This document shows positions 7,638 through 47,180 of a stretch of DNA of 64,000 nt, one piece after another. How positions within the stretch are numbered: the first letter of the stretch is position 1; each line of letters begins with the position of its first letter. The notes beneath the pieces are model-generated. The model did not search any database and was not told the origin of the DNA. It saw nothing but the letters and a program-made list of their open reading frames with translations. Where the stretch lies: NCBI RefSeq assembly GCF_057098645.1, contig NZ_CM169472.1, one strand, 5' to 3'. Made by a program: the position numbers and the translations under genes.

Positions 7638-8933
<1,296 letters not shown>

Positions 8934-8937
8934 AACT

Positions 8938-8970
8938 ATCAGCCGGGTCATTATCGCCTGGCTGATTTTT
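8938..8970 (+). terminator. Rho-independent terminator after yeaH
   Basis: ATCAGCCGGG...CCTGGCTGAT hairpin followed by TTTTT. Confidence 0.6.
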
Positions 8971-9079
8971 AGCTTACTGTAAATTATCTCATTTATTACA
9001 TACATTAGCTTACAATCGCTTTAAATATGACAGCATAACCTTTACATAATTTAGTTCCAGAAAACAATCATTCGGAAAA

Positions 9080-10555
9080 ATGATTCAGTCAACACGTATT
9101 TCCATGGGGTTATTCTTTAAATATTTTTTATCGTTAACGAAAATTGATCTTGGTCAAAACTATATATCTCTGCCATCAATAAAATCCAGCACTCACATTG
9201 TTCTCCTTTTTATGGTTTCTATGGGTACACAAAAATTAAAAGCTCAAAGCTTTTTTATTTTCAGTTTATTGCTGACGTTAATTTTATTTTGCATTACTAC
9301 CTTATATAACGAAAACACAAATGTAAAACTCATCCCACAGATGAATTACCTGATGGTTGTTGTGGCTTTGTTTTTCCTTAACGCCGTCATTTTTCTTTTC
9401 ATGTTAATGAAATATTTCACTAACAAACAAATTTTACCAACACTCATTTTAAGCCTTGCATTTTTAAGTGGCCTTATCTATTTAGTTGAAACCATTGTAA
9501 TTATCCATAAACCAATTAACGGCAGTACACTGATCCAGACAAAGTCGAATGATGTTTCTATTTTCTATATTTTCCGCCAACTCAGTTTTATTTGTTTAAC
9601 CTCGCTGGCGCTCTTTTGTTATGGCAAAGACAACATCCTGAACAATAATAAGAAAAAAACGGCAATCCTGTTGCTGGCGCTGATCCCTTTTTTATTTTTT
9701 CCCGTTCTGGCACACAATCTGAGCAGTTATAACGCTGACTATTCTTTGTATGTCGTCGATTACTGTCCTGACAACCATACTGCGACCTGGGGAATCAACT
9801 ATACAAAAATATTGGTTTGTCTGTGGGCATTTTTACTGTTCTTTATTATCATGCGTACACGATTAGCCAGCGAACTATGGCCATTAATAGCATTATTATG
9901 TCTGGCATCGCTATGCTGCAACTTACTTCTACTGACTCTGGATGAGTATAATTACACCATCTGGTACATCAGTCGCGGGATTGAAGTCTCCAGTAAACTG
10001 TTTGTTGTGTCTTTTCTGATTTATAACATTTTTCAGGAGCTGCAACTCTCCAGCAAACTGGCAGTTCATGATGTGCTGACCAATATTTATAATCGGCGCT
10101 ACTTTTTCAACAGCGTAGAGTCATTATTGTCGCGACCTGTTGTTAAGGACTTTTGTGTCATGTTGGTTGATATTAATCAGTTCAAACGCATCAATGCCCA
10201 ATGGGGACATCGTGTGGGTGATAAAGTGCTGGTATCAATTGTCGATATTATCCAGCAAAGCATCCGCCCCGATGATATTTTAGCGCGACTGGAGGGTGAG
10301 GTGTTTGGCTTGCTATTTACCGAACTCAATAGTGCCCAGGCAAAAATCATTGCGGAACGTATGCGTAAAAATGTCGAACTCCTGACCGGCTTTAGTAACA
10401 GATATGATGTTCCTGAACAAATGACCATCAGTATTGGCACTGTTTTTTCAACGGGTGACACGCGTAATATCTCGCTTGTCATGACGGAAGCAGATAAAGC
10501 CTTACGCGAAGCGAAAAGCGAGGGGGGCAACAAAGTGATTATTCATCATATTTAA
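9080..10555 (+). CDS. yeaI: Membrane GGDEF-domain protein with degenerate active-site motif (EGEVF)
   Basis: 491-aa ORF; AT-rich multi-TM N-terminus; RLEGEVFGLLF where GGDEF is expected. Confidence 0.85.
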   Translation: MIQSTRISMGLFFKYFLSLTKIDLGQNYISLPSIKSSTHIVLLFMVSMGTQKLKAQSFFIFSLLLTLILFCITTLYNENTNVKLIPQMNYLMVVVALFFLNAVIFLFMLMKYFTNKQILPTLILSLAFLSGLIYLVETIVIIHKPINGSTLIQTKSNDVSIFYIFRQLSFICLTSLALFCYGKDNILNNNKKKTAILLLALIPFLFFPVLAHNLSSYNADYSLYVVDYCPDNHTATWGINYTKILVCLWAFLLFFIIMRTRLASELWPLIALLCLASLCCNLLLLTLDEYNYTIWYISRGIEVSSKLFVVSFLIYNIFQELQLSSKLAVHDVLTNIYNRRYFFNSVESLLSRPVVKDFCVMLVDINQFKRINAQWGHRVGDKVLVSIVDIIQQSIRPDDILARLEGEVFGLLFTELNSAQAKIIAERMRKNVELLTGFSNRYDVPEQMTISIGTVFSTGDTRNISLVMTEADKALREAKSEGGNKVIIHHI

Positions 10556-10735
10556 GTGCAAAAATATTCAGAGCCATGCTTTTTGCGTGGCTTTTGCATA
10601 CAATTTATTACTATTACCCCTAAATTTCCCCTCCCCAGCGGCGCAGAGATGAGTATAATTAGCGCCCCTGTGCCAGGCCGCAATCGAACTTTATCTGGTT
10701 TTCTCGTTTCACTAACCGAAGGAGTGCCATTTATC

Positions 10736-12226
10736 ATGAAATTGCACCATAGAATGCTCCGGCATTTTATCGCCGCAAGTGTCATTGTGCTGACATCTTC
10801 CTTCCTTATTTTTGAACTTGTCGCCAGCGACAGAGCAATGAGTGCCTATCTGCGCTATATCGTGCAGAAAGCAGACTCCTCCTTTCTTTATGATAAGTAT
10901 CAGAATCAGAGTATTGCCGCGCATGTGATGCGCGCTCTCGCTGCTGAGCAGTCGGAAGTGTCGCCAGAACAGCGGCGCGCCATCTGCGAGGCTTTTGAGT
11001 CTGCCAATAATACCCATGGCTTAAACCTGACTGCCCATAAATACCCGGGCTTACGCGGCACACTACAAACCGCATCCACTGACTGCGACACAATTGTGGA
11101 AGCTGCAGCACTATTACCCGCTTTTGATCAGGCAGTGGAAGGCAACCGCCACCAGGATGATTACGGTTCAGGTCTTGGGATGGCCGAAGAGAAATTTCAC
11201 TATTATCTCGATCTCAATGACCGCTATGTCTATTTTTATGAGCCGGTTAATGTTGAATACTTTGCGATGAATAACTGGTCCTTCCTGCAGTCAGGAAGTA
11301 TTGGCATCGATCGCAAAGATATTGAAAAGGTATTTACCGGGCGTACCGTATTGTCGAGCATTTACCAGGATCAGCGTACTAAACAGAACGTGATGAGTTT
11401 GCTGACGCCGGTGTATGTTGCAGGGCAGCTAAAAGGGATTGTGCTGCTGGATATTAACAAAAACAATCTGCGGAATATCTTTTACACTCATGACCGCCCT
11501 CTCCTCTGGCGTTTTCTCAATGTCACGCTAACCGATACAGATTCGGGGCGCGACATTATCATCAACCAGAGCGAAGATAATCTGTTCCAGTATGTCAGTT
11601 ACGTCCATGACTTACCGGGCGGCATTCGTGTCTCGTTATCCATTGATATTCTTTACTTTATCACGTCTTCGTGGAAAAGCGTTCTGTTCTGGATTTTGAC
11701 GGCGTTAATTTTGCTGAATATGGTGCGGATGCACTTCCGCTTATACCAAAATGTGTCGCGAGAAAATATTAGTGATGCGATGACTGGACTGTATAATCGC
11801 AAAATTTTAACCCCTGAACTGGAGCAGCGGTTGCAGAAACTGGTGCAATCCGGTTCTTCGGTGATGTTTATTGCAATTGACATGGACAAGTTAAAGCTAA
11901 TAAATGACACCCTCGGTCATCAGGAAGGGGATTTAGCGATTACGTTGTTAGCTCAGGCGATTAAACAGTCGATTCGTAAAAGTGATTATGCCATCCGACT
12001 CGGTGGCGATGAATTCTGCATCATTCTTGTCGATTCGACGCCGCAAATTGCATCACAACTGCCTGAACGTATCGAAAAACGTCTGCAACATATCGCGCCG
12101 CAGAAAGAGATCGGCTTCTCTTCCGGTATTTACGCGATGAAAGAAAACGATACGTTACATGATGCGTATAAAGCTTCCGATGAGCGTTTATATGTCAATA
12201 AGCAGAACAAAAACAGCCGTTCATGA
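10736..12226 (+). CDS. yeaJ: Diguanylate cyclase YeaJ (intact GGDEF)
   Basis: Start ATG 10736 (MKLHHRML) after AAGGAG gives 496 aa; RLGGDEF present; ORF-track start 10556 is an upstream extension. Confidence 0.85.
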   Translation: MKLHHRMLRHFIAASVIVLTSSFLIFELVASDRAMSAYLRYIVQKADSSFLYDKYQNQSIAAHVMRALAAEQSEVSPEQRRAICEAFESANNTHGLNLTAHKYPGLRGTLQTASTDCDTIVEAAALLPAFDQAVEGNRHQDDYGSGLGMAEEKFHYYLDLNDRYVYFYEPVNVEYFAMNNWSFLQSGSIGIDRKDIEKVFTGRTVLSSIYQDQRTKQNVMSLLTPVYVAGQLKGIVLLDINKNNLRNIFYTHDRPLLWRFLNVTLTDTDSGRDIIINQSEDNLFQYVSYVHDLPGGIRVSLSIDILYFITSSWKSVLFWILTALILLNMVRMHFRLYQNVSRENISDAMTGLYNRKILTPELEQRLQKLVQSGSSVMFIAIDMDKLKLINDTLGHQEGDLAITLLAQAIKQSIRKSDYAIRLGGDEFCIILVDSTPQIASQLPERIEKRLQHIAPQKEIGFSSGIYAMKENDTLHDAYKASDERLYVNKQNKNSRS

Positions 12227-12268
12227 TAACCTTCTGTGGTTGTTTGCTTGTAATCTCAGGAGCATGAA

Positions 12269-12772
12269 ATGACTGAAATGGCTAAAGGAAGCGTGACGCA
12301 TCAGCGGTTAATCGCTTTATTATCACAAGAAGGTGCAGACTTCCGCGTCGTTACCCATGAAGCGGTAGGTAAATGTGAAGCGGTGTCAGAAATTCGTGGC
12401 ACCGCTTTAGGCCAGGGGGCTAAGGCACTGGTATGTAAAGTCAAAGGCAATGGCGTAAATCAACATGTTCTGGCGATCCTCGCTGCGGATCAACAGGCCG
12501 ATCTGAGCCAACTCGCCAGCCATATAGGCGGATTACGCGCTTCGTTGGCCAGCCCGGCGGAAGTCGATGAACTCACAGGCTGTGTCTTCGGCGCGATCCC
12601 CCCTTTCAGCTTCCATCCAAAACTCAAACTGGTTGCCGACCCCCTACTCTTCGAACGATTTGATGAAATCGCCTTCAATGCAGGCATGCTGGATAAATCC
12701 GTTATTTTGAAAACCGCGGATTATTTGCGCATTGCGCAACCAGAACTGATCAATTTCCGCCGCACTGCGTAA
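12269..12772 (+). CDS. yeaK: YbaK/ProX-family aminoacyl-tRNA deacylase YeaK
   Basis: 167-aa ORF recognised as YeaK. Confidence 0.85.
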   Translation: MTEMAKGSVTHQRLIALLSQEGADFRVVTHEAVGKCEAVSEIRGTALGQGAKALVCKVKGNGVNQHVLAILAADQQADLSQLASHIGGLRASLASPAEVDELTGCVFGAIPPFSFHPKLKLVADPLLFERFDEIAFNAGMLDKSVILKTADYLRIAQPELINFRRTA

Positions 12773-12877
12773 CTAGCCTGTCCGTTCAATAAGCAGAACG
12801 GACAAAACCAGCACAACAGCAATGGCAAAAAACGATGACGTGATAATCAGTGTCTCGACGAACATTTGATCGTTCAT
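12773..12877 (-). CDS. yoaI: Small membrane protein YoaI (34 aa)
   Basis: Hand translation of the minus strand gives [34 protein letters not shown]; below the ORF-track length cut-off. Confidence 0.75.
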
Positions 12878-13046
12878 AGCATGCCCCCGGGAGATAGCTG
12901 TTTTCACGTTATTGTTAGCGTGCACAAATGGCAGTTTGATGACAGTTCGCCTGATTTTTTATGCAAAAAACGTAAAGATTTTCTACTTCCTTCCTGCAGC
13001 AAGCGTAAAGTAAGCAGGCTTATTATTTTTTGGCAAGGAAACCACG

Positions 13047-13493
13047 ATGTTTGATGTCACTTTGCTGATCCTGCTCGGGTTAGCTGCGCTGGGCTTTATC
13101 AGTCATAACACCACTGTCGCCGTTTCAATTCTGGTGTTGATCATTGTCCGCGTCACACCGTTAAGCACCTTTTTCCCGTGGATTGAAAAACAGGGGCTAA
13201 GTATCGGGATAATCATTCTGACGATTGGCGTTATGGCCCCCATCGCCAGCGGGACGCTACCGCCCTCAACCTTGATTCACTCGTTTCTGAACTGGAAATC
13301 GCTGGTGGCAATTGCAGTAGGCGTTATTGTCTCCTGGCTGGGTGGGCGCGGCGTGACGTTAATGGGCAGCCAGCCGCAACTGGTTGCTGGGCTGCTGGTG
13401 GGCACTGTTTTAGGCGTAGCGCTGTTTCGCGGCGTACCGGTTGGCCCGCTTATTGCCGCGGGTCTGGTTTCGCTGATTGTGGGGAAACAGTAG
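13047..13493 (+). CDS. yeaL: UPF0756 inner-membrane protein YeaL
   Basis: 148-aa hydrophobic ORF recognised as YeaL. Confidence 0.85.
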
Positions 13494-14271
13494 TTAATCC
13501 CGCAATATATCGGCCTGGCGTTTGCCCCAGGCCTTTCTTAAACATAGTAATAAAGGCCGTTGTTGAATCATACCCCAGCGTATGAGCAACTTTCTGTACA
13601 GTATCGCCTTTCACTAATCCCTGAAGCGCCATAATCAGCTGTAACTGCTGACGCCACTGGCGAAAACTCAACCCCGTCTCTTTTACTATCAGTCGGGCAA
13701 GATTGCGTTCACTCATCGCAAAAAAGCCAGCCCATTGCCCCAATGACCCCCACTCGACGGGCTCTTTCGCCATCATCTCCACCATCGTGCGGATTTTAGG
13801 ATGAGAAGAAACGGGCAAGTGCAGCTGTTGTTGTGGCTGCTGAGGGAGTTCATCAAACAGGACCTGAATTAATCTGCGGGTCATCGGCTCAGCACGCTGA
13901 GTCGTAGTCCTGTTTGCCAGGGTTAAAATCAATTCCCGGCATAAGGGCGATATTTTCAATGTGCAACATGTTGTCGGCATTGTCACTGCGCTGGGTTCGA
14001 TAAACAGAAAACAGAGTTCAGCGTTAGCTGTCACTTGATTGCTATGCTTCACCCCGCCCGGTATCCAAACCGCATATTGTGGCGGCACCATCCACAAAGC
14101 ATTTTCCACCGTACAGGTAATTGCACCATGTAATGCCAGTATCAGCTGTCCTTTGCGGTGCTGATGTACAGGACTGGTTAACTCATCCGTTCCGGCGTGA
14201 ATACAAAATGCGACCGCGGCTTCATGGTGTCGGTCGGGTTCATAGCCATTGAGATTCAACCTGTGCATCAT
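13450..14271 (-). CDS. yeaM: AraC-family transcriptional regulator YeaM (NimR)
   Basis: 273-aa ORF with C-terminal AraC HTH; divergent from yeaN; 3' end overlaps yeaL. Confidence 0.85.
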
Positions 14272-14367
14272 TTTGTCCGAATATAGCGATAATTTGTCAT
14301 TTTAGCTTGATTCAACATAACAATAAAAACGGTAAGGTACAGCCTCGTTTGTAACAATGAGAAGCAT

Positions 14368-15549
14368 ATGACCTGTTCAACTTCATTAAGCGGCAAAAAC
14401 AGGATTGTCCTTATCGCTGGCATTCTGATGATTGCCACTACATTACGCGTCACCTTCACCGGCGCTGCACCGTTACTCGATACGATTCGTTCCGCTTACT
14501 CGCTGACGACTGCGCAAATCGGCTTATTGACCACCCTGCCATTATTGGCCTTTGCGCTAATCTCACCTTTGGCCGCCCCGGTGGCGCGACGTTTTGGTAT
14601 GGAACGTAGCCTGTTTGCCGCGTTACTTTTGATCTGTGCTGGTATCGCAATTCGCTCTCTCCCTTCGCCTTACTTATTATTTGGCGGTACAGCGGTCATT
14701 GGCGGTGGGATTGCATTAGGCAATGTCTTACTGCCAGGATTAATTAAACGCGATTTCCCTCATTCCGTCGCCAGACTTACCGGCGCATATTCCCTGACAA
14801 TGGGAGCTGCGGCGGCACTGGGATCGGCTATGGTAGTGCCGCTGGCTTTGAACGGTTTTGGCTGGCAAGGCGCGTTGCTCATGCTGATGTGTTTTCCTCT
14901 GCTGGCTCTTTTTTTATGGCTGCCACAGTGGCGAAGCCAACAACATGCAAATTTGAGTACTTCACGCGCCTTACATACTCGGGGTATCTGGCGTTCGCCG
15001 CTTGCCTGGCAGGTAACATTGTTTCTTGGGATCAACTCACTGGTCTATTACGTGATTATTGGCTGGCTTCCGGCGATCCTCATCAGTCACGGCTATAGCG
15101 AAGCACAGGCGGGTTCACTGCATGGTTTGCTGCAACTAGCCACAGCAGCTCCCGGTTTGCTGATCCCGCTTTTCTTACATCATGTGAAAGATCAGCGTGG
15201 TATTGCAGCGTTCGTTGCCTTGATGTGCGCAGTGGGCGCGGTTGGGCTCTGCTTTATGCCAGCGCACGCGATCACCTGGACTCTGCTTTTCGGTTTTGGT
15301 TCCGGCGCAACAATGATACTGGGGTTGACGTTCATTGGTCTTCGGGCAAGTTCTGCGCATCAGGCGGCGGCACTCTCGGGGATGGCACAATCCGTCGGGT
15401 ATTTGCTGGCAGCCTGTGGGCCGCCGCTGATGGGTAAAATACACGATGCTAACGGTAACTGGTCTGTACCACTGATGGGTGTTGCCATGCTTTCACTACT
15501 GATGGCGATTTTCGGACTTTGCGCCGGAAGAGACAAAGAAATTCGCTAA
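14368..15549 (+). CDS. yeaN: MFS transporter YeaN (NimT)
   Basis: 393-aa 12-TM ORF recognised as YeaN. Confidence 0.85.
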   Translation: MTCSTSLSGKNRIVLIAGILMIATTLRVTFTGAAPLLDTIRSAYSLTTAQIGLLTTLPLLAFALISPLAAPVARRFGMERSLFAALLLICAGIAIRSLPSPYLLFGGTAVIGGGIALGNVLLPGLIKRDFPHSVARLTGAYSLTMGAAAALGSAMVVPLALNGFGWQGALLMLMCFPLLALFLWLPQWRSQQHANLSTSRALHTRGIWRSPLAWQVTLFLGINSLVYYVIIGWLPAILISHGYSEAQAGSLHGLLQLATAAPGLLIPLFLHHVKDQRGIAAFVALMCAVGAVGLCFMPAHAITWTLLFGFGSGATMILGLTFIGLRASSAHQAAALSGMAQSVGYLLAACGPPLMGKIHDANGNWSVPLMGVAMLSLLMAIFGLCAGRDKEIR

Positions 15550-15603
15550 TATCCGGTGCTATAGTGACGTGACAAATCATGCGTGAAAGGGAGAACAAAC
15601 ACG

Positions 15604-15951
15604 ATGAATATTCAGTGCAAACGCGTTTATGATCCGGCAGAACAGAGCGATGGTTATCGCATACTGGTCGACCGCCTCTGGCCGCGCGGTATCAAAAAAA
15701 CCGATTTAGCCCTTGATGAGTGGGATAAAGAAATCACGCCGTCAACGGAACTGCGCAAAGCCTTTCACGGCGAAGTCGTCGATTTTGCAACCTTTCGCGA
15801 GCAATATCTTGCAGAACTGGCGCAACACGAGCAAGAAGGAAAGCGGCTGGCGGACATCGCCAAAAAACAGCCGCTGACCCTGCTCTACTCAGCAAAAAAC
15901 ACCACGCAGAACCATGCGCTGGTGCTGGCCGACTGGCTACGTAGCTTGTGA
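15604..15951 (+). CDS. yeaO: DUF488 protein YeaO
   Basis: ATG 15604 (MNIQCKRVYD) after GGGAGA gives 115 aa; ORF-track start 15583 is a GTG extension. Confidence 0.85.
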   Translation: MNIQCKRVYDPAEQSDGYRILVDRLWPRGIKKTDLALDEWDKEITPSTELRKAFHGEVVDFATFREQYLAELAQHEQEGKRLADIAKKQPLTLLYSAKNTTQNHALVLADWLRSL

Positions 15952-15972
15952 TTTTAGTACAGCATCCGGCGG

Positions 15973-16227
15973 TTATTTTTCACCAGCCGGATGGTCCCGT
16001 CGCCACAATGCCCATTCATCAATCGTTTCACCGCCCGGTAATTTGCAATTGTTGCTGACCCCTTGCGCTGTCTGCACTGGAATGAGCGTCCCGCCCTTCT
16101 GCTGGCAATAGACCGACGCCGGATTTGCCATACCAATCTGCGGCGGTTTAGGTGCATCTGGCTGAGAAGGGGTTGAACAACCAGCCAGGACCAGCAAGCA
16201 AGGCAGAACAAAACTGATAATTTTCAT
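15973..16227 (-). CDS. yoaF: Lipoprotein YoaF (DUF333)
   Basis: 84-aa ORF with lipobox LAGC. Confidence 0.85.
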   Translation of the reverse strand: MKIISFVLPCLLVLAGCSTPSQPDAPKPPQIGMANPASVYCQQKGGTLIPVQTAQGVSNNCKLPGGETIDEWALWRRDHPAGEK

Positions 16228-16409
16228 TTATTGATCTCACATATTTATCCAAGCTTAGAGTATCGCGGTATCGTTTTGTTTTGCAGCACTATTTTTATTA
16301 CATTCACTCAAAACATATTACGTCTTGTTTCATCTTTGTTGATGATGTTTTATCATGCCTGCAAAGATTAAATAATCAGCACTTACCCGCCGTATCCTGG
16401 AGTTGTTCC

Positions 16410-17435
16410 GTGTCAGATCAGATTATCGCCCGCGTCTCGCAATCCCTTGCCAAAGAACAGTCACTGGAAAGTCTGGTCCGACAGCTTCTGGAGATGCTGG
16501 AAATGGTCACTGATATGGAATCAACCTACCTGACCAAAGTGGATGTCGAAGCGCGCCTGCAGCATATTATGTTTGCCCGTAACAGCCAGAAAATGCACAT
16601 CCCGGAGAATTTTACCGTCTCGTGGGATTACTCGTTATGCAAACGCGCCATTGATGAAAACTGCTTTTTCAGCGATGAAGTCCCTGACCGTTGGGGCGAC
16701 TGTATTGCGGCACGCAATCTTGGCATCACCACATTTCTGAGCACGCCAATTCACTTACCGGATGGATCATTCTATGGCACGCTTTGCGCCGCCAGCAGTG
16801 AGAAGCGCCAGTGGAGTGAACGCGCGGAACAGGTTTTACAGTTATTCGCCGGACTGATTGCACAATATATTCAAAAAGAGGCACTGGTTGAACAGCTGCG
16901 CGAAGCCAATGCTGCGCTGATTGCGCAATCGTATACCGACTCGTTAACCGGGCTACCGAATCGGCGGGCGATTTTTGAAAATCTGACGACGCTGTTTTCC
17001 CTCGCCCGGCATCTTAACCATAAGATAATGATCGCGTTTATCGATCTGGATAACTTCAAATTAATCAATGATCGTTTTGGTCATAATAGTGGCGATCTGT
17101 TTCTCATTCAGGTTGGCGAGCGCCTTAATACGCTCCAGCAAAATGGCGAAGTTATTGGTCGTCTCGGTGGTGATGAGTTTTTGGTTGTTTCACTAAACAA
17201 CGAGAATGCGGATATTTCGTCGCTGCGAGAACGTATTCAACAGCAAATACGTGGAGAATATCACTTAGGTGATGTTGATTTGTATTATCCCGGTGCCAGT
17301 CTTGGCATAGTAGAAGTCGATCCTGAAACGACCGATGCAGACAGTGCCCTGCATGCTGCCGATATCGCGATGTATCAGGAGAAAAAACACAAACAGAAAA
17401 CACCTTTTGTCGCGCATCCAGCGCTACATTCCTGA
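16410..17435 (+). CDS. yeaP: GAF-GGDEF diguanylate cyclase YeaP
   Basis: GTG start 16410 after GGAG gives 341 aa; RLGGDEF present; ORF-track start 16281 is an upstream extension. Confidence 0.85.
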   Translation: MSDQIIARVSQSLAKEQSLESLVRQLLEMLEMVTDMESTYLTKVDVEARLQHIMFARNSQKMHIPENFTVSWDYSLCKRAIDENCFFSDEVPDRWGDCIAARNLGITTFLSTPIHLPDGSFYGTLCAASSEKRQWSERAEQVLQLFAGLIAQYIQKEALVEQLREANAALIAQSYTDSLTGLPNRRAIFENLTTLFSLARHLNHKIMIAFIDLDNFKLINDRFGHNSGDLFLIQVGERLNTLQQNGEVIGRLGGDEFLVVSLNNENADISSLRERIQQQIRGEYHLGDVDLYYPGASLGIVEVDPETTDADSALHAADIAMYQEKKHKQKTPFVAHPALHS

Positions 17436-17467
17436 GGCGTATTCACATCCTTTTGATTGGTGATAAC

Positions 17468-17566
17468 ATGCGAATCGGTATTATTTTTCCGGTTGTAATC
17501 TTCATTACAGCGGTCGTATTTTTAGCATGGTTTTTTATTGGCGGCTATGCTGCCCCGGGAGCATAA
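17468..17566 (+). CDS. yoaK: Small membrane protein YoaK (32 aa)
   Basis: Hand translation gives MRIGIIFPVVIFITAVVFLAWFFIGGYAAPGA; absent from ORF track. Confidence 0.7.
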   Translation: MRIGIIFPVVIFITAVVFLAWFFIGGYAAPGA

Positions 17567-17568
17567 AG

Positions 17569-17643
17569 ATGAAAAAAACAACGATTATTATGATGGGTGT
17601 GGCGATTATTGTCGTACTCGGCACTGAGCTGGGATGGTGGTAA
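17569..17643 (+). CDS. yoaJ: Small membrane protein YoaJ (24 aa)
   Basis: Hand translation gives MKKTTIIMMGVAIIVVLGTELGWW; starts 2 nt after the yoaK stop. Confidence 0.7.
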   Translation: MKKTTIIMMGVAIIVVLGTELGWW

Positions 17644-17664
17644 CGTCACCTCTAAAAAATAGCA

Positions 17665-17688
17665 AAGGCTGCCTGTGTGCAGCCTTTG
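17665..17688. terminator. Bidirectional stem-loop between yoaJ (+) and yeaQ (-)
   Basis: AAAGGCTGC-ctgtgt-GCAGCCTTT. Confidence 0.55.
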
Positions 17689-17701
17689 TGCAATTTAAGC
17701 G

Positions 17702-18815: not shown

Positions 18816-19523
<708 letters not shown>

Positions 19524-33052: not shown

Positions 33053-33352
33053 ATGCCTGCTGTAATAGATAAAGCCCTGGATTTCATTGGTGCCATGGAT
33101 GTATCAGCGCCAACACCAAGTTCGATGAATGAAAGCACGGCGAAGGGAATCTTTAAATATTTAAAAGAACTGGGAGTACCCGCGAGTGCCGCTGATATTA
33201 CGGCGCGAGCTGACCAGGAAGGCTGGAACCCTGGGTTCACGGAAAAAATGGTTGGATGGGCAAAAAAAATGGAGACAGGTGAACGCTCTGTGATTAAAAA
33301 TCCTGAGTACTTTTCAACATATATGCAGGAAGAACTAAAAGCACTGGTCTGA
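33053..33352 (+). CDS. yoaC: DUF1889 protein YoaC
   Basis: Start ATG 33053 (MPAVIDKALD) after AAGGA gives 99 aa. Confidence 0.8.
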   Translation: MPAVIDKALDFIGAMDVSAPTPSSMNESTAKGIFKYLKELGVPASAADITARADQEGWNPGFTEKMVGWAKKMETGERSVIKNPEYFSTYMQEELKALV

Positions 33353-37346: not shown

Positions 37347-38945
37347 ATGCAAAAAGCACAACGGATCATTAAAACCTATCGCCGTAATCGAATGATTGTT
37401 TGTACGATTTGCGCACTCGTTACGCTCGCTTCGACCCTGAGCGTGCGATTTATTTCACAGCGTAACTTAAATCAACAACGGGTAGTACAATTCGCCAATC
37501 ACGCTGTAGAGGAATTAGATAAAGTACTGCTTCCCCTACAGGCAGGTAGCGAAGTCTTGCTTCCGCTGATTGGTCTGCCCTGCTCTGTCGCCCATTTGCC
37601 ATTACGTAAACAGGCGGCAAAACTACAAACTGTGCGATCCATTGGCCTGGTGCAAGACGGCACACTTTATTGCTCCAGCATTTTTGGTTATCGCAATGTG
37701 CCCGTCGTGGACATTCTGGCTGAACTTCCTGCACCGCAACCACTTTTACGCCTGACGACCGACCGTGTCCTGATTAAAGGCAGTCCGGTTTTGATTCAAT
37801 GGACGCCTGCAGCGAGCAGTAGCAATGCTGGGGTCATGGAGATGATTAACATCGACTTACTGACGGCAATGCTCCTTGAGCCACAACTGCCGCAAATCAG
37901 TAGCGCCAGCCTGACGGTGGACAAACGGCATTTGCTCTATGGTAATGGGCTGGTAGATTCCCTTCCGCAACCTGAAGACAATGAAAACTATCAGGTTTCT
38001 TCGCAACGCTTTCCTTTTACCATTAACGTTAATGGTCCGGGGGCTACGGCGCTGGCATGGCACTATCTTCCAACACAATTACCGCTGGCGGTGCTGCTAA
38101 GTTTACTGGTGGGCTACATCGCCTGGCTGGCGACCGCTTACCGGATGAGCTTTTCCCGCGAAATCAATCTGGGCCTGGCGCAACATGAGTTCGAATTGTT
38201 CTGTCAGCCTTTGCTTAATGCGCGCAGCCAGCAATGTATTGGTGTAGAGATTTTGCTGCGCTGGAACAATCCGCGTCAGGGCTGGATTTCACCGGATGTG
38301 TTTATTCCTATCGCGGAAGAACATCATTTAATTGTGCCACTGACCCGCTATGTGATGGCAGAAACCATTCGTCAGCGCCATGTTTTCCCGATGAGTAGTC
38401 AGTTTCATGTTGGCATTAACGTCGCACCCAGCCATTTTCGCCGTGGTGTGCTGATAAAAGATCTCAATCAGTACTGGTTTAGCGCTCACCCGATTCAGCA
38501 ACTGATCCTCGAAATCACCGAACGCGATGCCTTACTGGATGTTGATTATCGGATTGCCCGCGAGCTACATCGTAAAAACGTCAAACTGGCGATTGATGAC
38601 TTCGGCACCGGCAACAGTTCATTTTCCTGGCTTGAAACATTACGTCCTGACGTGCTGAAAATTGATAAGTCATTTACCGCAGCTATAGGTTCTGACGCGG
38701 TTAACTCGACGGTGACCGATATCATCATCGCGCTGGGGCAAAGACTGAATATTGAACTGGTGGCGGAGGGCGTGGAAACGCAAGAACAGGCGAAGTATTT
38801 GCGCCGTCATGGCGTGCATATTTTGCAAGGGTATTTGTACGCACAGCCGATGCCGCTACGTGATTTCCCCAAATGGCTGGCGGGCAGCCAACCGCCGCCC
38901 GCCCGGCATAATGGACATATCACGCCCATTATGCCGTTACGTTAA
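37347..38945 (+). CDS. yoaD: CSS-motif EAL-domain c-di-GMP phosphodiesterase YoaD
   Basis: Start at MQKAQRIIK gives 532 aa; periplasmic CSS motif and C-terminal EAL domain. Confidence 0.85.
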   Translation: MQKAQRIIKTYRRNRMIVCTICALVTLASTLSVRFISQRNLNQQRVVQFANHAVEELDKVLLPLQAGSEVLLPLIGLPCSVAHLPLRKQAAKLQTVRSIGLVQDGTLYCSSIFGYRNVPVVDILAELPAPQPLLRLTTDRVLIKGSPVLIQWTPAASSSNAGVMEMINIDLLTAMLLEPQLPQISSASLTVDKRHLLYGNGLVDSLPQPEDNENYQVSSQRFPFTINVNGPGATALAWHYLPTQLPLAVLLSLLVGYIAWLATAYRMSFSREINLGLAQHEFELFCQPLLNARSQQCIGVEILLRWNNPRQGWISPDVFIPIAEEHHLIVPLTRYVMAETIRQRHVFPMSSQFHVGINVAPSHFRRGVLIKDLNQYWFSAHPIQQLILEITERDALLDVDYRIARELHRKNVKLAIDDFGTGNSSFSWLETLRPDVLKIDKSFTAAIGSDAVNSTVTDIIIALGQRLNIELVAEGVETQEQAKYLRRHGVHILQGYLYAQPMPLRDFPKWLAGSQPPPARHNGHITPIMPLR

Positions 38946-44374: not shown

Positions 44375-44500
44375 TTGCGCCCTCATTTGGGGAGTAGCCG
44401 ATTTCCAGATTCCGGAAATGTACGTGTCAACATACTCGTTGCAAAACGTGGCACGTACGGACTGAAGACTTTCAGTCAGGCGAGACCATATGCACATCAA
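44375..44500 (+). ncRNA. yybP-ykoY family Mn2+ riboswitch in the mntP leader
   Basis: Signature TTGGGGAGTAG at 44388..44398 and a downstream GAGAC..CATA element, about 220 nt upstream of the mntP ATG; boundaries approximate. Confidence 0.6.
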
Positions 44501-44608
44501 TCGCTATGCCTGCATGAACGCGAAAACCCATCGCGGCTTGTTGTTCATGTATGCATGTTTGCTGGGGGCGATGATGTGTTTTATGGATATCCCGGTCAGG
44601 ACGTTGTC

Positions 44609-45175
44609 ATGAATATCACTGCTACTGTTCTTCTTGCGTTTGGTATGTCGATGGATGCATTTGCTGCATCAATCGGTAAAGGTGCCACCCTCCAAAAACC
44701 GAAATTTTCTGAAGCATTGCGAACCGGCCTTATTTTTGGTGCCGTCGAAACCCTGACGCCGCTGATCGGCTGGGGAATGGGCATGTTAGCCAGCCGGTTT
44801 GTCCTTGAATGGAATCACTGGATTGCGTTTGTGCTGCTGATATTCCTCGGCGGGCGAATGATTATTGAGGGTTTTCGTGGCGCAGATGATGAAGATGAAG
44901 AGCCGCGCCGTCGGCACGGTTTCTGGCTACTGGTAACCACCGCGATTGCCACCAGCCTGGATGCCATGGCTGTGGGTGTTGGTCTTGCTTTCCTTCAGGT
45001 CAACATTATCGCGACCGCATTGGCCATTGGTTGTGCAACCTTGATTATGTCGACATTAGGGATGATGGTTGGTCGCTTTATCGGCTCAATTATTGGGAAA
45101 AAAGCGGAAATTCTCGGCGGGCTGGTGCTGATCGGCATCGGCGTCCAGATCCTCTGGACGCACTTCCACGGTTAA
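44609..45175 (+). CDS. mntP: Manganese efflux pump MntP
   Basis: Start ATG 44609 ([10 protein letters not shown]) gives 188 aa; ORF-track start 44366 reads through the leader. Confidence 0.9.
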
Positions 45176-45981: not shown

Positions 45982-46075
45982 GACAACTCCGGCAGGATAC
46001 TAAAGGCCGCAAGTGTAACGCGAATCACGCGGCGGGCAAATATCCGAACGCCAGGAGCGAAGATAAAGCATAGTA

Positions 46076-46102
46076 AAAAGCCTCGCATTCGACGAGGCTT
46101 TA
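46076..46102 (-). terminator. Rho-independent terminator after cspC
   Basis: AAAGCCTCG...CGAGGCTTT with a T-run on the minus strand. Confidence 0.65.
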
Positions 46103-46146
46103 TAGCGAGATTGAAGCGTATTCACACTTCAGATCAGTGGATTCGA

Positions 46147-46356
46147 TCAGATAGCTGTTACGTTAACAGCTGCCGGACCTTTCTGGCCGTCCTGAATTTC
46201 GAACTCAACGTTCTGACCTTCAGCCAGAGTTTTGAAGCCATTACCCTGGATAGCGGAGAAGTGTACGAACACGTCTTTGCTGCCATCAGCAGGAGTAATG
46301 AAGCCAAAACCTTTAGACTCGTTGAACCACTTAACCTGACCTTTAATCTTTGCCAT
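46147..46356 (-). CDS. cspC: Cold-shock-domain protein CspC
   Basis: 69-aa ORF with [15 protein letters not shown] motif. Confidence 0.95.
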
Positions 46357-46368
46357 TTGAAAAATTCC

Positions 46369-46512
46369 TTAGATTGTTTTCTTCGCCCGCAGGCATAACA
46401 TAGATAAAACTGACACATTACTGCATGAGGCACCAATATAAGGCTCGGCAGAGAAGCGGTATTCAACGTCAACGTGTTTACTCAGGACTTCTTTACTGAA
46501 AATGCCACACAT
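46369..46512 (-). CDS. yobF: Small protein YobF (47 aa), upstream of cspC
   Basis: Hand translation gives [47 protein letters not shown]; the ORF track shows only a longer overlapping frame. Confidence 0.7.
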
Positions 46513-47180
46513 AAACAGAACTGTACCTCGTTTAACCCGAAATCTGTTATCACATACAACGTTAATTATGGCAAGCCATTTTTAAACATGTCTCGATCAG
46601 ACGCACAAATCTCGATACGTCTTCCACTTTTTTTGCACACTTATGCAACGGAATACGCGCCGATATATCATTGTGCTTAACCTTGCCAGTTCAGGCAGAT
46701 ACTTAAACTGGCGTAGTTTCTAACATAGTTCAATAAGTTCAGTTGTTCCAGGCCAGTGGGAGAAGTTATTACATAGTGCGTGCAATATCACATTTTCTGC
46801 TATGCAATGAATAAAAAGTTATATCACTTTTTCTCATAAAACAGGCAGTTAACGGCTATCAATCACCCCAAAGAGAAGTCAATCCCAAAGGTATTGGAAA
46901 TTTAAAATAAGAAAAAATGATGAATAAGCAAAAAAATCAAGAGAGAAACGTTTCGCTAATAAATAATACCACGCTTAATCACAAATCCGATGTAAACATC
47001 CTAATAAATTAATGAGGAAAATATCTTTTTCTGATATCCCGTTACGCAAATAAATAATATGATAATTATTTGAAGTCAGACCAGAGTTTTAATTTGAAGC
47101 AGTTGCACCATGACAGTGCGTATAATCAGGATGAATTGAGTAACCCTTCAACGACGGGGTTACTCAAGATTGAGGAAGGA

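Follow-up and report, generated by a model that had tools for sequence, protein, structure and literature searches.

A degenerate MASE4-GGDEF protein, CdgI, encoded beside dgcJ in Escherichia coli: a probable c-di-GMP receptor that is closer to DgcT than to its neighbour

The 64,000-nucleotide stretch of contig NZ_CM169472.1 analysed here (the window) carries four genes of cyclic diguanylate (c-di-GMP) signalling: cdgI (yeaI), dgcJ (yeaJ) and dgcP (yeaP), which lie close together, and pdeD (yoaD) further off. All four are already annotated and already characterised c-di-GMP genes of the Escherichia coli core genome. The explanation that fits them best is that they encode four known proteins, of which CdgI is a non-enzymatic receptor; that no duplication links cdgI to dgcJ; that the active site (A-site) of CdgI was lost in Escherichia; and that the AT-richness at the start of cdgI has two parts. 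We give this explanation as a whole a probability of roughly 85%.

Identities, domains, motifs, synteny, selection and composition were determined in this study. The binding of c-di-GMP by CdgI, the coupling of DgcJ to NfrB and the expression data come from the literature, and we infer the loss of catalysis, the mechanism of CdgI as an effector or heteromer partner, and its start codon. A preliminary description of the region, made from the DNA alone, is confirmed in its observation and partly supported in its interpretation. Nothing in the region falls outside the known c-di-GMP network of E. coli, and the finding is an ordinary and already known one. The additions made here are modest: the dating of the A-site loss, the purifying selection on cdgI, a likely over-extended start and the context of a variable slot.

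Four annotated genes of the core chromosome

The four genes were located as follows, each from the list of open reading frames (ORFs) and from the RefSeq coding sequence (CDS); lengths are in amino acids (aa).

9080-10555, + strand: cdgI (yeaI), 491 aa as annotated; conserved core CDS 9221-10555, 444 aa
10736-12226, + strand: dgcJ (yeaJ), 496 aa
16410-17435, + strand: dgcP (yeaP), 341 aa, GTG start
37347-38945, + strand: pdeD (yoaD), 532 aa

The window is 100% identical to the chromosome of E. coli O145 str. RM9872, and the four ORFs are the RefSeq CDSs cdgI, dgcJ, dgcP and pdeD of that strain, with coordinates that match those of the preliminary description exactly. Because coordinates and identity equal the RefSeq annotation, its report of three GGDEF genes inside 8.4 kb and an EAL gene further off is a correct re-description of annotated core genes. 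Of 5426 complete E. coli genomes, 5424 contain the segment 8900-12300, which holds cdgI and dgcJ, and 5389 do so with a coverage of at least 80%. The four genes are separate members of the c-di-GMP network within the conserved yeaG-to-yoaE stretch of the core chromosome.

CdgI combines a degenerate A-site with an intact I-site

The domains and motifs of CdgI were placed as follows.

9341-10036, + strand: MASE4 integral-membrane sensor domain (aa 88-319; PF17158; 36-37% GC)
10061-10534, + strand: GGDEF domain (aa 328-485; PF00990, full-length match 1-161)
10265-10276, + strand: I-site RPDD (RxxD), aa 396-399, five residues upstream of the A-site
10292-10306, + strand: degenerate A-site EGEVF in place of GG[D/E]EF, aa 405-409

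Both domains score far above their Pfam cut-offs (MASE4, 165.5 bits against 28.4; GGDEF, 152.8 bits against 23.8), and the hydropathy profile, with many hydrophobic segments from aa 55 to 290, is that of a polytopic membrane protein. A MASE4 domain N-terminal to GGDEF, together with homology to DgcT over the full length, places CdgI in the MASE4-GGDEF family. Its translation reads RPDD-ILARL-EGEVF: the I-site is intact, with RxxD five residues upstream of the A-site, and the A-site is degenerate. By the criterion of an intact GG[D/E]EF, CdgI does not qualify as a competent diguanylate cyclase (DGC); DgcJ and DgcP do. Near the end of the domain, CdgI has GGN (aa 482-484) at the conserved GRN, with Arg replaced by Gly, and ALR at the conserved ALY.

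The EGEVF that had been noticed where GGDEF is expected is therefore present, at aa 405-409. The accompanying proposal that the protein is probably inactive and may be a c-di-GMP receptor agrees with the degenerate A-site, the intact I-site and published binding data (PMC5635695). The receptor role is not new. Sarenko 2017 (PMC5635695) described the A-site of CdgI as degenerate and its I-site as intact and showed that purified CdgI binds c-di-GMP. In the same study CdgI was undetectable under standard conditions, its overproduction was toxic, and its GGDEF domain contacted several other GGDEF domains strongly in a two-hybrid assay; the authors suggested that CdgI may inhibit other GGDEF proteins in a manner modulated by c-di-GMP. 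Two groups have called CdgI degenerate or catalytically non-functional (PMC5635695, PMC10459773). Binding of RstA to the yeaI promoter has been described (PMC6824119), and SrsR is reported to bind or regulate the cdgI promoter.

Given EGEVF and the missing Arg of GRN, CdgI most likely does not synthesise c-di-GMP. It would instead bind the nucleotide and act as a sensor or effector, possibly through heteromers with other GGDEF domains. According to the literature, the protein is barely expressed under laboratory conditions.

In sequence collections the full-length CdgI cluster has 10877 members, and three clusters of truncated proteins, P0013, P0021 and P0024 (345, 295 and 281 aa), have 639, 249 and 934. 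The truncated clusters suggest recurrent truncation of cdgI in E. coli populations, and some of them may be fragments at contig ends.

The A-site was probably lost in Escherichia under continuing purifying selection

Fourteen homologues were aligned, and motifs were taken from 11 loci. Escherichia lineages differ from Citrobacter strains with a syntenic cdgI at three sites.

A-site: EGEVF, DGEVF, EGNVF or EGEEF in Escherichia lineages; GGEEF in syntenic Citrobacter
GRN: GGN or SGN in Escherichia (Arg lost); GRN in Citrobacter
ALY: ALR or ALC in Escherichia (Tyr lost); ALY in Citrobacter

The first position of the A-site is non-glycine (E or D) in every Escherichia lineage examined, and further degenerate homologues are P0012 (77% identical, EGEVF) and P0018 (64% identical, EGKRF). 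R396 and D399 of the I-site are invariant in 14 of 14 homologues, as are D364, N372, D381 and K479. Since syntenic Citrobacter orthologues keep GGEEF, the active site appears to have degenerated in the Escherichia lineage, presumably from a GGEEF ancestor of the kind still seen in Citrobacter. The drift at positions 3 and 4 of the A-site is what relaxed catalytic constraint would produce.

The ratio of nonsynonymous to synonymous substitution rates (dN/dS) of cdgI was 0.10 against E. whittamii and 0.07 against E. albertii, with similar values in the MASE4 and GGDEF halves. The corresponding ratios were 0.03 for dgcJ, 0.05 for dgcP and 0.01 for yeaH. cdgI is thus still under purifying selection. 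The most economical reading is that a cyclase was converted into a c-di-GMP-binding protein in Escherichia, and not that the gene became a pseudogene.

A more specific scenario can be drawn from this, although we consider it unlikely as a whole. In the slot between yeaH and dgcJ, an active MASE4 cyclase might have become a c-di-GMP-gated partner or inhibitor of GGDEF proteins, perhaps of DgcJ, and might so influence the NfrB-dependent susceptibility to phage N4. If this were true, the Citrobacter and Escherichia proteins would form a natural before-and-after system for the change from enzyme to receptor.

cdgI and dgcJ are neighbours but not duplicates

cdgI and dgcJ lie on the same strand, 180 bp apart, and an old tandem duplication had been suggested for them. 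In BLASTP, however, the match between CdgI and DgcJ is confined to the GGDEF domain (28% identity over 153 aa), at the level of CdgI with DgcP (31%) and DgcJ with DgcP (29%); this is an outcome that the preliminary description had itself named as refuting. The N-terminal Pfam families of CdgI and DgcJ differ (MASE4 in CdgI, GAPES1 in DgcJ). The description of both as membrane proteins of similar size holds for their lengths, 491 and 496 aa; their membrane architectures, a polytopic MASE4 and a GAPES1 domain with two transmembrane segments, are unrelated. On the DgcJ equivalog model NF040885 (cut-off 500), DgcJ scores 745.8 bits, DgcP 83.5 and CdgI 66.4, so that DgcJ is the only member. CdgI scores higher on other NCBIfam models (PleD, 131 bits; SiaD, 118; DgcN, 99).

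The closer relative of CdgI is DgcT (YcdT). CdgI and K-12 DgcT align end to end with 38% identity over 445 aa and one gap (E 5e-100), and dgcT lies outside the window, adjoining pgaA of the pga operon in K-12. The N-terminal domain of CdgI is known to be common to DgcT and DgcX (PMC5635695), and YcdT, DgcX and YeaI have been grouped as one MASE4-GGDEF family (PMC10459773). cdgI and dgcJ are neither closest paralogues nor similar beyond the catalytic domain, and CdgI is a paralogue of DgcT and DgcX.

The distribution of the genes points the same way. One genome per species was scanned with the DgcJ alignment, followed by tblastn with the neighbouring proteins. The order yeaG-yeaH-dgcJ-yeaK-yeaL was found in Escherichia, Citrobacter, Klebsiella and Kluyvera, and likewise in Buttiauxella, where yeaK was undetected; Salmonella enterica subsp. 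arizonae and diarizonae have yeaH-dgcJ-yeaK-yeaL, their loci being incomplete upstream. dgcJ thus follows yeaH in six genera (Escherichia, Salmonella, Citrobacter, Klebsiella, Kluyvera and Buttiauxella). Among the genomes surveyed, cdgI lies between the two only in Escherichia (E. coli, E. albertii, E. whittamii, E. sp. E1V33 and MOD1-EC7003) and in a small Citrobacter group (C. sp. NCU1, Awk 4 and R56, and two metagenome contigs). The slot is empty in C. amalonaticus, C. sedlakii and Kluyvera genomosp. 1, where about 140 bp separate yeaH from dgcJ. Elsewhere it holds unrelated ORFs, labelled from sequence alone without a domain search: a 256-aa methyltransferase-like ORF, a 385-aa glycosyltransferase-like ORF, a LysR/LysE-type pair and an ABC-type protein. 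In the Salmonella arizonae and diarizonae gaps (650-860 bp), neither tblastn nor blastn found a cdgI remnant. This pattern indicates that cdgI sits in a variable slot beside the far more widely conserved dgcJ.

A tandem duplication of one membrane GGDEF gene, followed by loss of the active site in yeaI, would account for two same-strand neighbours of nearly equal length that are both membrane-anchored and both carry a C-terminal GGDEF domain with an RxxD I-site. We rejected it as very improbable. The identity inside GGDEF is no better than that of either protein with DgcP, the DgcJ model ranks CdgI below DgcP, the N-terminal halves are of different families and topologies, CdgI is much closer to its paralogue DgcT, with homology over the full length, and dgcJ follows yeaH in many genera without cdgI, the slot holding unrelated genes or nothing. 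That cdgI and dgcJ lie side by side is no reason to read them as duplicates; they would have become neighbours through insertion or retention at the variable slot after yeaH.

The AT-rich stretch and the start codon of cdgI

Two features precede the conserved part of cdgI.

8938-8966, + strand: terminator-like hairpin and T-run after the yeaH stop; 11-pair stem with 6 GC pairs, then TTTTAGCTTA
8934-9220, + strand: AT-rich interval from yeaH to the conserved cdgI start, about 31-32% GC, including codons 1-47 (9080-9220)

The N-terminal region of yeaI (about 9080-10100) had been described as AT-rich compared with its neighbours, and the composition scan agrees: 9080-10100 has 35.7% GC, against 49.1% in yeaH and 45.9% in dgcJ. 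The 600-bp windows starting at 8901-9001 have the lowest GC content of the 64 kb (30.5%; mean 49.7%, standard deviation 4.4%), and 8934-9211 has a GC fraction of 0.317. The yeaH terminator, whose stem is conserved in the aligned E. albertii and Citrobacter sequences, sets cdgI apart from the yeaGH unit. In the terminator scan it was the only convincing site, and no terminator-like site was seen between cdgI and dgcJ. The promoter scan gave 7 sites, against 9.0 ± 3.0 in shuffled sequence, and thus no excess. With Rfam, neither a scan of all 64 kb at the gathering score nor one of 8700-17700 with E values up to 1 turned up an RNA element around cdgI, dgcJ and dgcP; a sub-threshold JUMPstart match at 13253-13282, the sole match in the 8700-17700 scan, was taken as chance.

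The first 47 codons of cdgI are poorly conserved. Upstream of the common start, stop codons close the frame after 10-26 codons in E. albertii and Citrobacter. This stretch has gained or lost single bases at several places between E. coli and E. albertii, and its identity is 67%, against 83% in the CDS. E. whittamii lacks the upstream ATG, as does the divergent E69 lineage of E. coli. Within close Escherichia clades, codons 1-47 are about 86% identical, the same as the CDS, so that the informative comparisons are those with E. albertii and Citrobacter alone. The sole ATG conserved across the four aligned genomes is at 9221, the DgcT alignment starts with M48 of CdgI at M1 of DgcT, and many CdgI orthologues in databases are annotated at 444-448 aa. 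From the unconserved codons 1-47, the shared ATG and the DgcT alignment, the conserved CdgI probably starts at 9221 or 9212. The interval 8934-9220 then probably serves as promoter and 5' leader, not as conserved coding sequence, and the 491-aa annotation, also used for K-12, is probably over-extended by about 47 unconserved residues that are possibly untranslated.

Downstream of this start the GC content of cdgI has a two-step profile, with about 36% in the MASE4-coding part and about 44% in the GGDEF part. The E. albertii and Citrobacter orthologues have the same two-part profile (35-36%, then 42-44%), as does K-12 dgcT (35.0% and 44.0%). For the MASE4 part, 41.1% GC was expected from the amino acids of CdgI and the codon usage of its neighbours, and 35.9% was observed. 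About 60% of the GC deficit comes from amino acid composition (membrane helices rich in Ile, Leu, Phe, Asn, Lys and Tyr) and about 40% from AT-biased synonymous choice. Because orthologues and dgcT share the low-GC profile, it is an old property of the gene family and not a mark of recent import into E. coli; recent horizontal transfer was for this reason, and given the share due to amino acids, rejected as the main cause. The AT-richness would thus combine an AT-rich promoter and leader, partly mis-annotated as codons 1-47, with the low-GC composition of MASE4-GGDEF genes. Silencing by H-NS is a plausible consequence of the low GC content.

DgcJ, DgcP and PdeD

The layout of the other three proteins is as follows, with transmembrane segments given as TM.

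DgcJ, + strand: TM; periplasmic GAPES1 domain, aa 31-304 (10826-11647); TM; GGDEF domain, aa 346-494 (11771-12217)
DgcJ motifs, + strand: I-site RKSD, 11975-11986; GGDEF, 12002-12016 (aa 423-427); RKSD-YAIRL-GGDEF
DgcP, + strand: GAF domain, about 16458-16874; GGDEF domain, about 16932-17399; intact GGDEF motif, 17166-17180 (aa 253-257)
PdeD, + strand: TM; periplasmic CSS domain, aa 43-240 (37473-38066); TM; EAL domain, aa 273-501 (38163-38849)
PdeD CSS motif, + strand: aa 109-111 (37671-37679); Cys79 and Cys109 periplasmic

DgcJ matches GAPES1 with 501.8 bits and GGDEF with 136.2 bits, and like PdeD it has two hydrophobic segments around a periplasmic domain of roughly 220-280 aa. It is needed for, and interacts with, NfrB, the c-di-GMP-dependent glycosyltransferase of phage N4 infection, and its cyclase activity is implied by an A-site mutant (PMC8669469). 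In our reading DgcJ is an active cyclase that carries a GAPES1 sensor in the periplasm and is subject to feedback through its I-site; published work has shown that it supplies c-di-GMP locally to NfrB.

DgcP scores above the cut-offs for both GAF families (GAF_2, 41.7 bits; GAF, 36.5 bits) and matches GGDEF with 140.9 bits. Its motif, QNGE-VIGRL-GGDEF, has an intact A-site without an RxxD I-site, and the hydropathy profile of DgcP contains no hydrophobic window. The earlier view of it as a cytoplasmic GAF-GGDEF protein was thus correct; DgcP would be a soluble, GAF-regulated cyclase without I-site control. It is expressed vegetatively and relatively strongly, and PdeD is induced in stationary phase (PMC5635695). 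In Shigella flexneri, dgcJ is truncated and dgcP is kept.

PdeD matches the CSS-motif domain (PF12792) with 145.7 bits and EAL (PF00563) with 197.6 bits. The EAL domain contains ELF, EITE, DDFGTGNSS, KIDK, EGVE and QGY, and the hydrophobic segments are found around aa 24-28 and 250-256. With both domains and these motifs present, PdeD is a CSS-motif EAL phosphodiesterase, as had been proposed, of the type formed by PdeB, PdeC, PdeD, PdeG and PdeN. On the related equivalog PRK10551 it scores 319 bits, below the cut-off of 461, and is therefore a paralogue of the PRK10551 enzyme and a different protein. It is predicted to act as a membrane EAL phosphodiesterase with a periplasmic two-cysteine CSS domain.

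Alternative explanations for CdgI and for the gene cluster

Several points weigh against the explanation given above. The loss of cyclase activity in CdgI is read from its motifs. The 2011 study of Sanchez-Torres is reported to have argued that YeaI is an active cyclase and that alanine in EGEVF abolished its effect on motility. Literature text searches for EGEVF alongside YeaI gave no match. In its citing passage, PMC6824119 gives Sanchez-Torres 2011 as the source for yeaI as a DGC gene that raises c-di-GMP in BW25113. MASE4-only truncated alleles exist in E. coli (P0013, P0021 and P0024), CdgI is not detectably expressed in K-12 (PMC5635695) and cdgI is deleted in S. flexneri; taken together, these suggest that cdgI may be dispensable or decaying in some lineages. 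In E. coli the frame from the ATG at 9080 is open, and a weak Shine-Dalgarno sequence of GGA type precedes it, so that a long form is possible. Finally, the clustering of three GGDEF genes is nominally improbable by chance (P ~0.008) and may reflect some functional linkage.

It is improbable, in our view, that CdgI is still an active cyclase despite EGEVF, feeding the c-di-GMP pool and repressing motility, release of extracellular DNA and early biofilm formation. The passage of PMC6824119 on Sanchez-Torres 2011 speaks for it, as do the RstA interaction with the yeaI promoter reported in the same paper, the RefSeq PGAP product name 'sensor domain-containing diguanylate cyclase' in RM9872 and the invariant substrate and metal positions D364, N372, D381 and K479. 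However, the first Gly of GG[D/E]EF is Glu or Asp in all Escherichia lineages examined, positions 3 and 4 of the motif drift (EV, NV, EE, KR) as without catalytic constraint, the Arg of GRN is lost in the same clade, and both PMC5635695 and PMC10459773 call the protein degenerate or non-functional. Effects on c-di-GMP in vivo could also be indirect, through heteromers with real DGCs. Some small weight is left to residual activity because that 2011 study is cited as dissenting. We also doubt strongly that cdgI is a functionless relic, that is, an acquired AT-rich gene that was silenced and is being lost. The undetectable protein and its toxicity on overproduction (PMC5635695) would fit a relic, as would the deletion of the gene in S. 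flexneri and in a laboratory-evolved K-12 line, the frequency of MASE4-only truncated alleles in sequence collections, and the rapid evolution of CdgI, the fastest of the proteins compared at the locus (87% identity to E. albertii, against 91-99% for its neighbours). A relic would not be expected to have a dN/dS of 0.07-0.10 in both domains across Escherichia species, an ORF intact in five species-level Escherichia genomes, a segment covered to at least 80% in nearly all E. coli genomes (5389 of 5426), an invariant I-site with many invariant GGDEF core residues, or the regulated promoters reported for RstA and SrsR.

The possibility that CdgI is kept beside dgcJ, and near dgcP, as a functional module in which it acts directly on DgcJ as a regulator, for instance by forming an inhibitory heteromer gated by c-di-GMP, seems to us, if anything, slightly less probable still. 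The strong interaction of the CdgI GGDEF domain with several GGDEF domains in the two-hybrid assay (PMC5635695), the gap between cdgI and dgcJ without a terminator-like site, and dgcJ as the next gene after cdgI in the cdgI-carrying genomes where the downstream region is covered are consistent with it. So is the clustering itself: with about 19 GGDEF genes in E. coli (the total is from PMC11327459), three in 8.4 kb have P ~0.007-0.009 under random placement, in a test made post hoc. Yet the partners of CdgI are unnamed in the text of PMC5635695, and the parts of the CdgI and DgcJ literature consulted report no DgcJ-CdgI interaction. Moreover, dgcJ works without cdgI in most genera and the genes between, from yeaK to yoaF, are unrelated. 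The linkage of dgcJ to dgcP is also seen, with comparable spacing, in Citrobacter, Klebsiella and Kluyvera and is therefore inherited old synteny. We prefer CdgI as a non-enzymatic receptor at a variable slot.

Other features of the window

The spacing of the cluster varies with its intervening genes. E. albertii is without the nimR-nimT pair between yeaL and yeaO (10280-10378 in its locus, L002, compared with 13450-15549 in the window), and its cdgI, dgcJ and dgcP lie within 6.2 kb. Citrobacter loci have an additional GATase-family gene after nimT.

Elsewhere in the window, the following were seen.

18816-19455: leuE, and 33054-33352: yoaC, both annotated as frameshifted pseudogenes in the O145 strain
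26937-27022, - strand: Rfam sroD at the 3' end of fadD
44490-44612: annotated 40-aa 'hypothetical protein' directly upstream of, and overlapping, mntP
46072-46532, - strand: Rfam cspA thermoregulator (136.9 bits), spanning the cold-shock gene (annotated cspE) together with yobF in its upstream region
62020-62164: Rfam overlapping antisense small RNA pair, SraC/RyeA (+ strand) and SdsR/RyeB (- strand)

Around cspE/yobF, at 46.5 kb, the GC content falls to about 34.5%, the second-lowest value in the window. The mntP leader with its manganese riboswitch would be expected at 44490-44612; the whole-window Rfam scan at gathering score gave no yybP-ykoY match.

Comparison with known systems

Receptors with a degenerate GGDEF domain that bind c-di-GMP through the I-site include PopA of Caulobacter and PelD of Pseudomonas. 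CdgI resembles them in its degenerate A-site, its retained RxxD I-site and its reported binding of c-di-GMP (PMC5635695); it differs from them in N-terminal domain and output. Within its own family, DgcT shares with CdgI the MASE4-GGDEF architecture across the full length and the low-GC profile, but has GGEEF, GRN and ALY where CdgI has EGEVF, GGN and ALR, and is encoded at another locus adjoining pgaA. DgcX belongs to the same family by published grouping and has a reportedly intact GGEEF (PMC10459773); unlike cdgI, dgcX is mobile and lies at another locus.

The K-12 counterparts are nearly the same as the proteins described here. CdgI of K-12 (YeaI, b1785) agrees at 485 of 491 residues (99% identity) and also in its flanking genes, EGEVF, RPDD and annotated length; two of its six substitutions (L24P and V41A) fall among the poorly conserved N-terminal 47 residues. 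DgcJ, DgcP and PdeD of K-12 agree in genes, order and domain content and show strain-level substitutions only. The most instructive comparison is with the syntenic Citrobacter orthologues (R56, NCU1 and Awk 4). They occupy the same slot between yeaH and dgcJ, are 58-63% identical to CdgI with a MASE4 and a GGDEF domain, have 445 aa, an I-site RS[DE]D and a low GC content of 37-38%, but they keep GGEEF, the Arg of GRN and the Tyr of ALY and are predicted to be active cyclases. They offer a ready active control for studies of CdgI function and allow the loss of its A-site to be dated to the Escherichia lineage.

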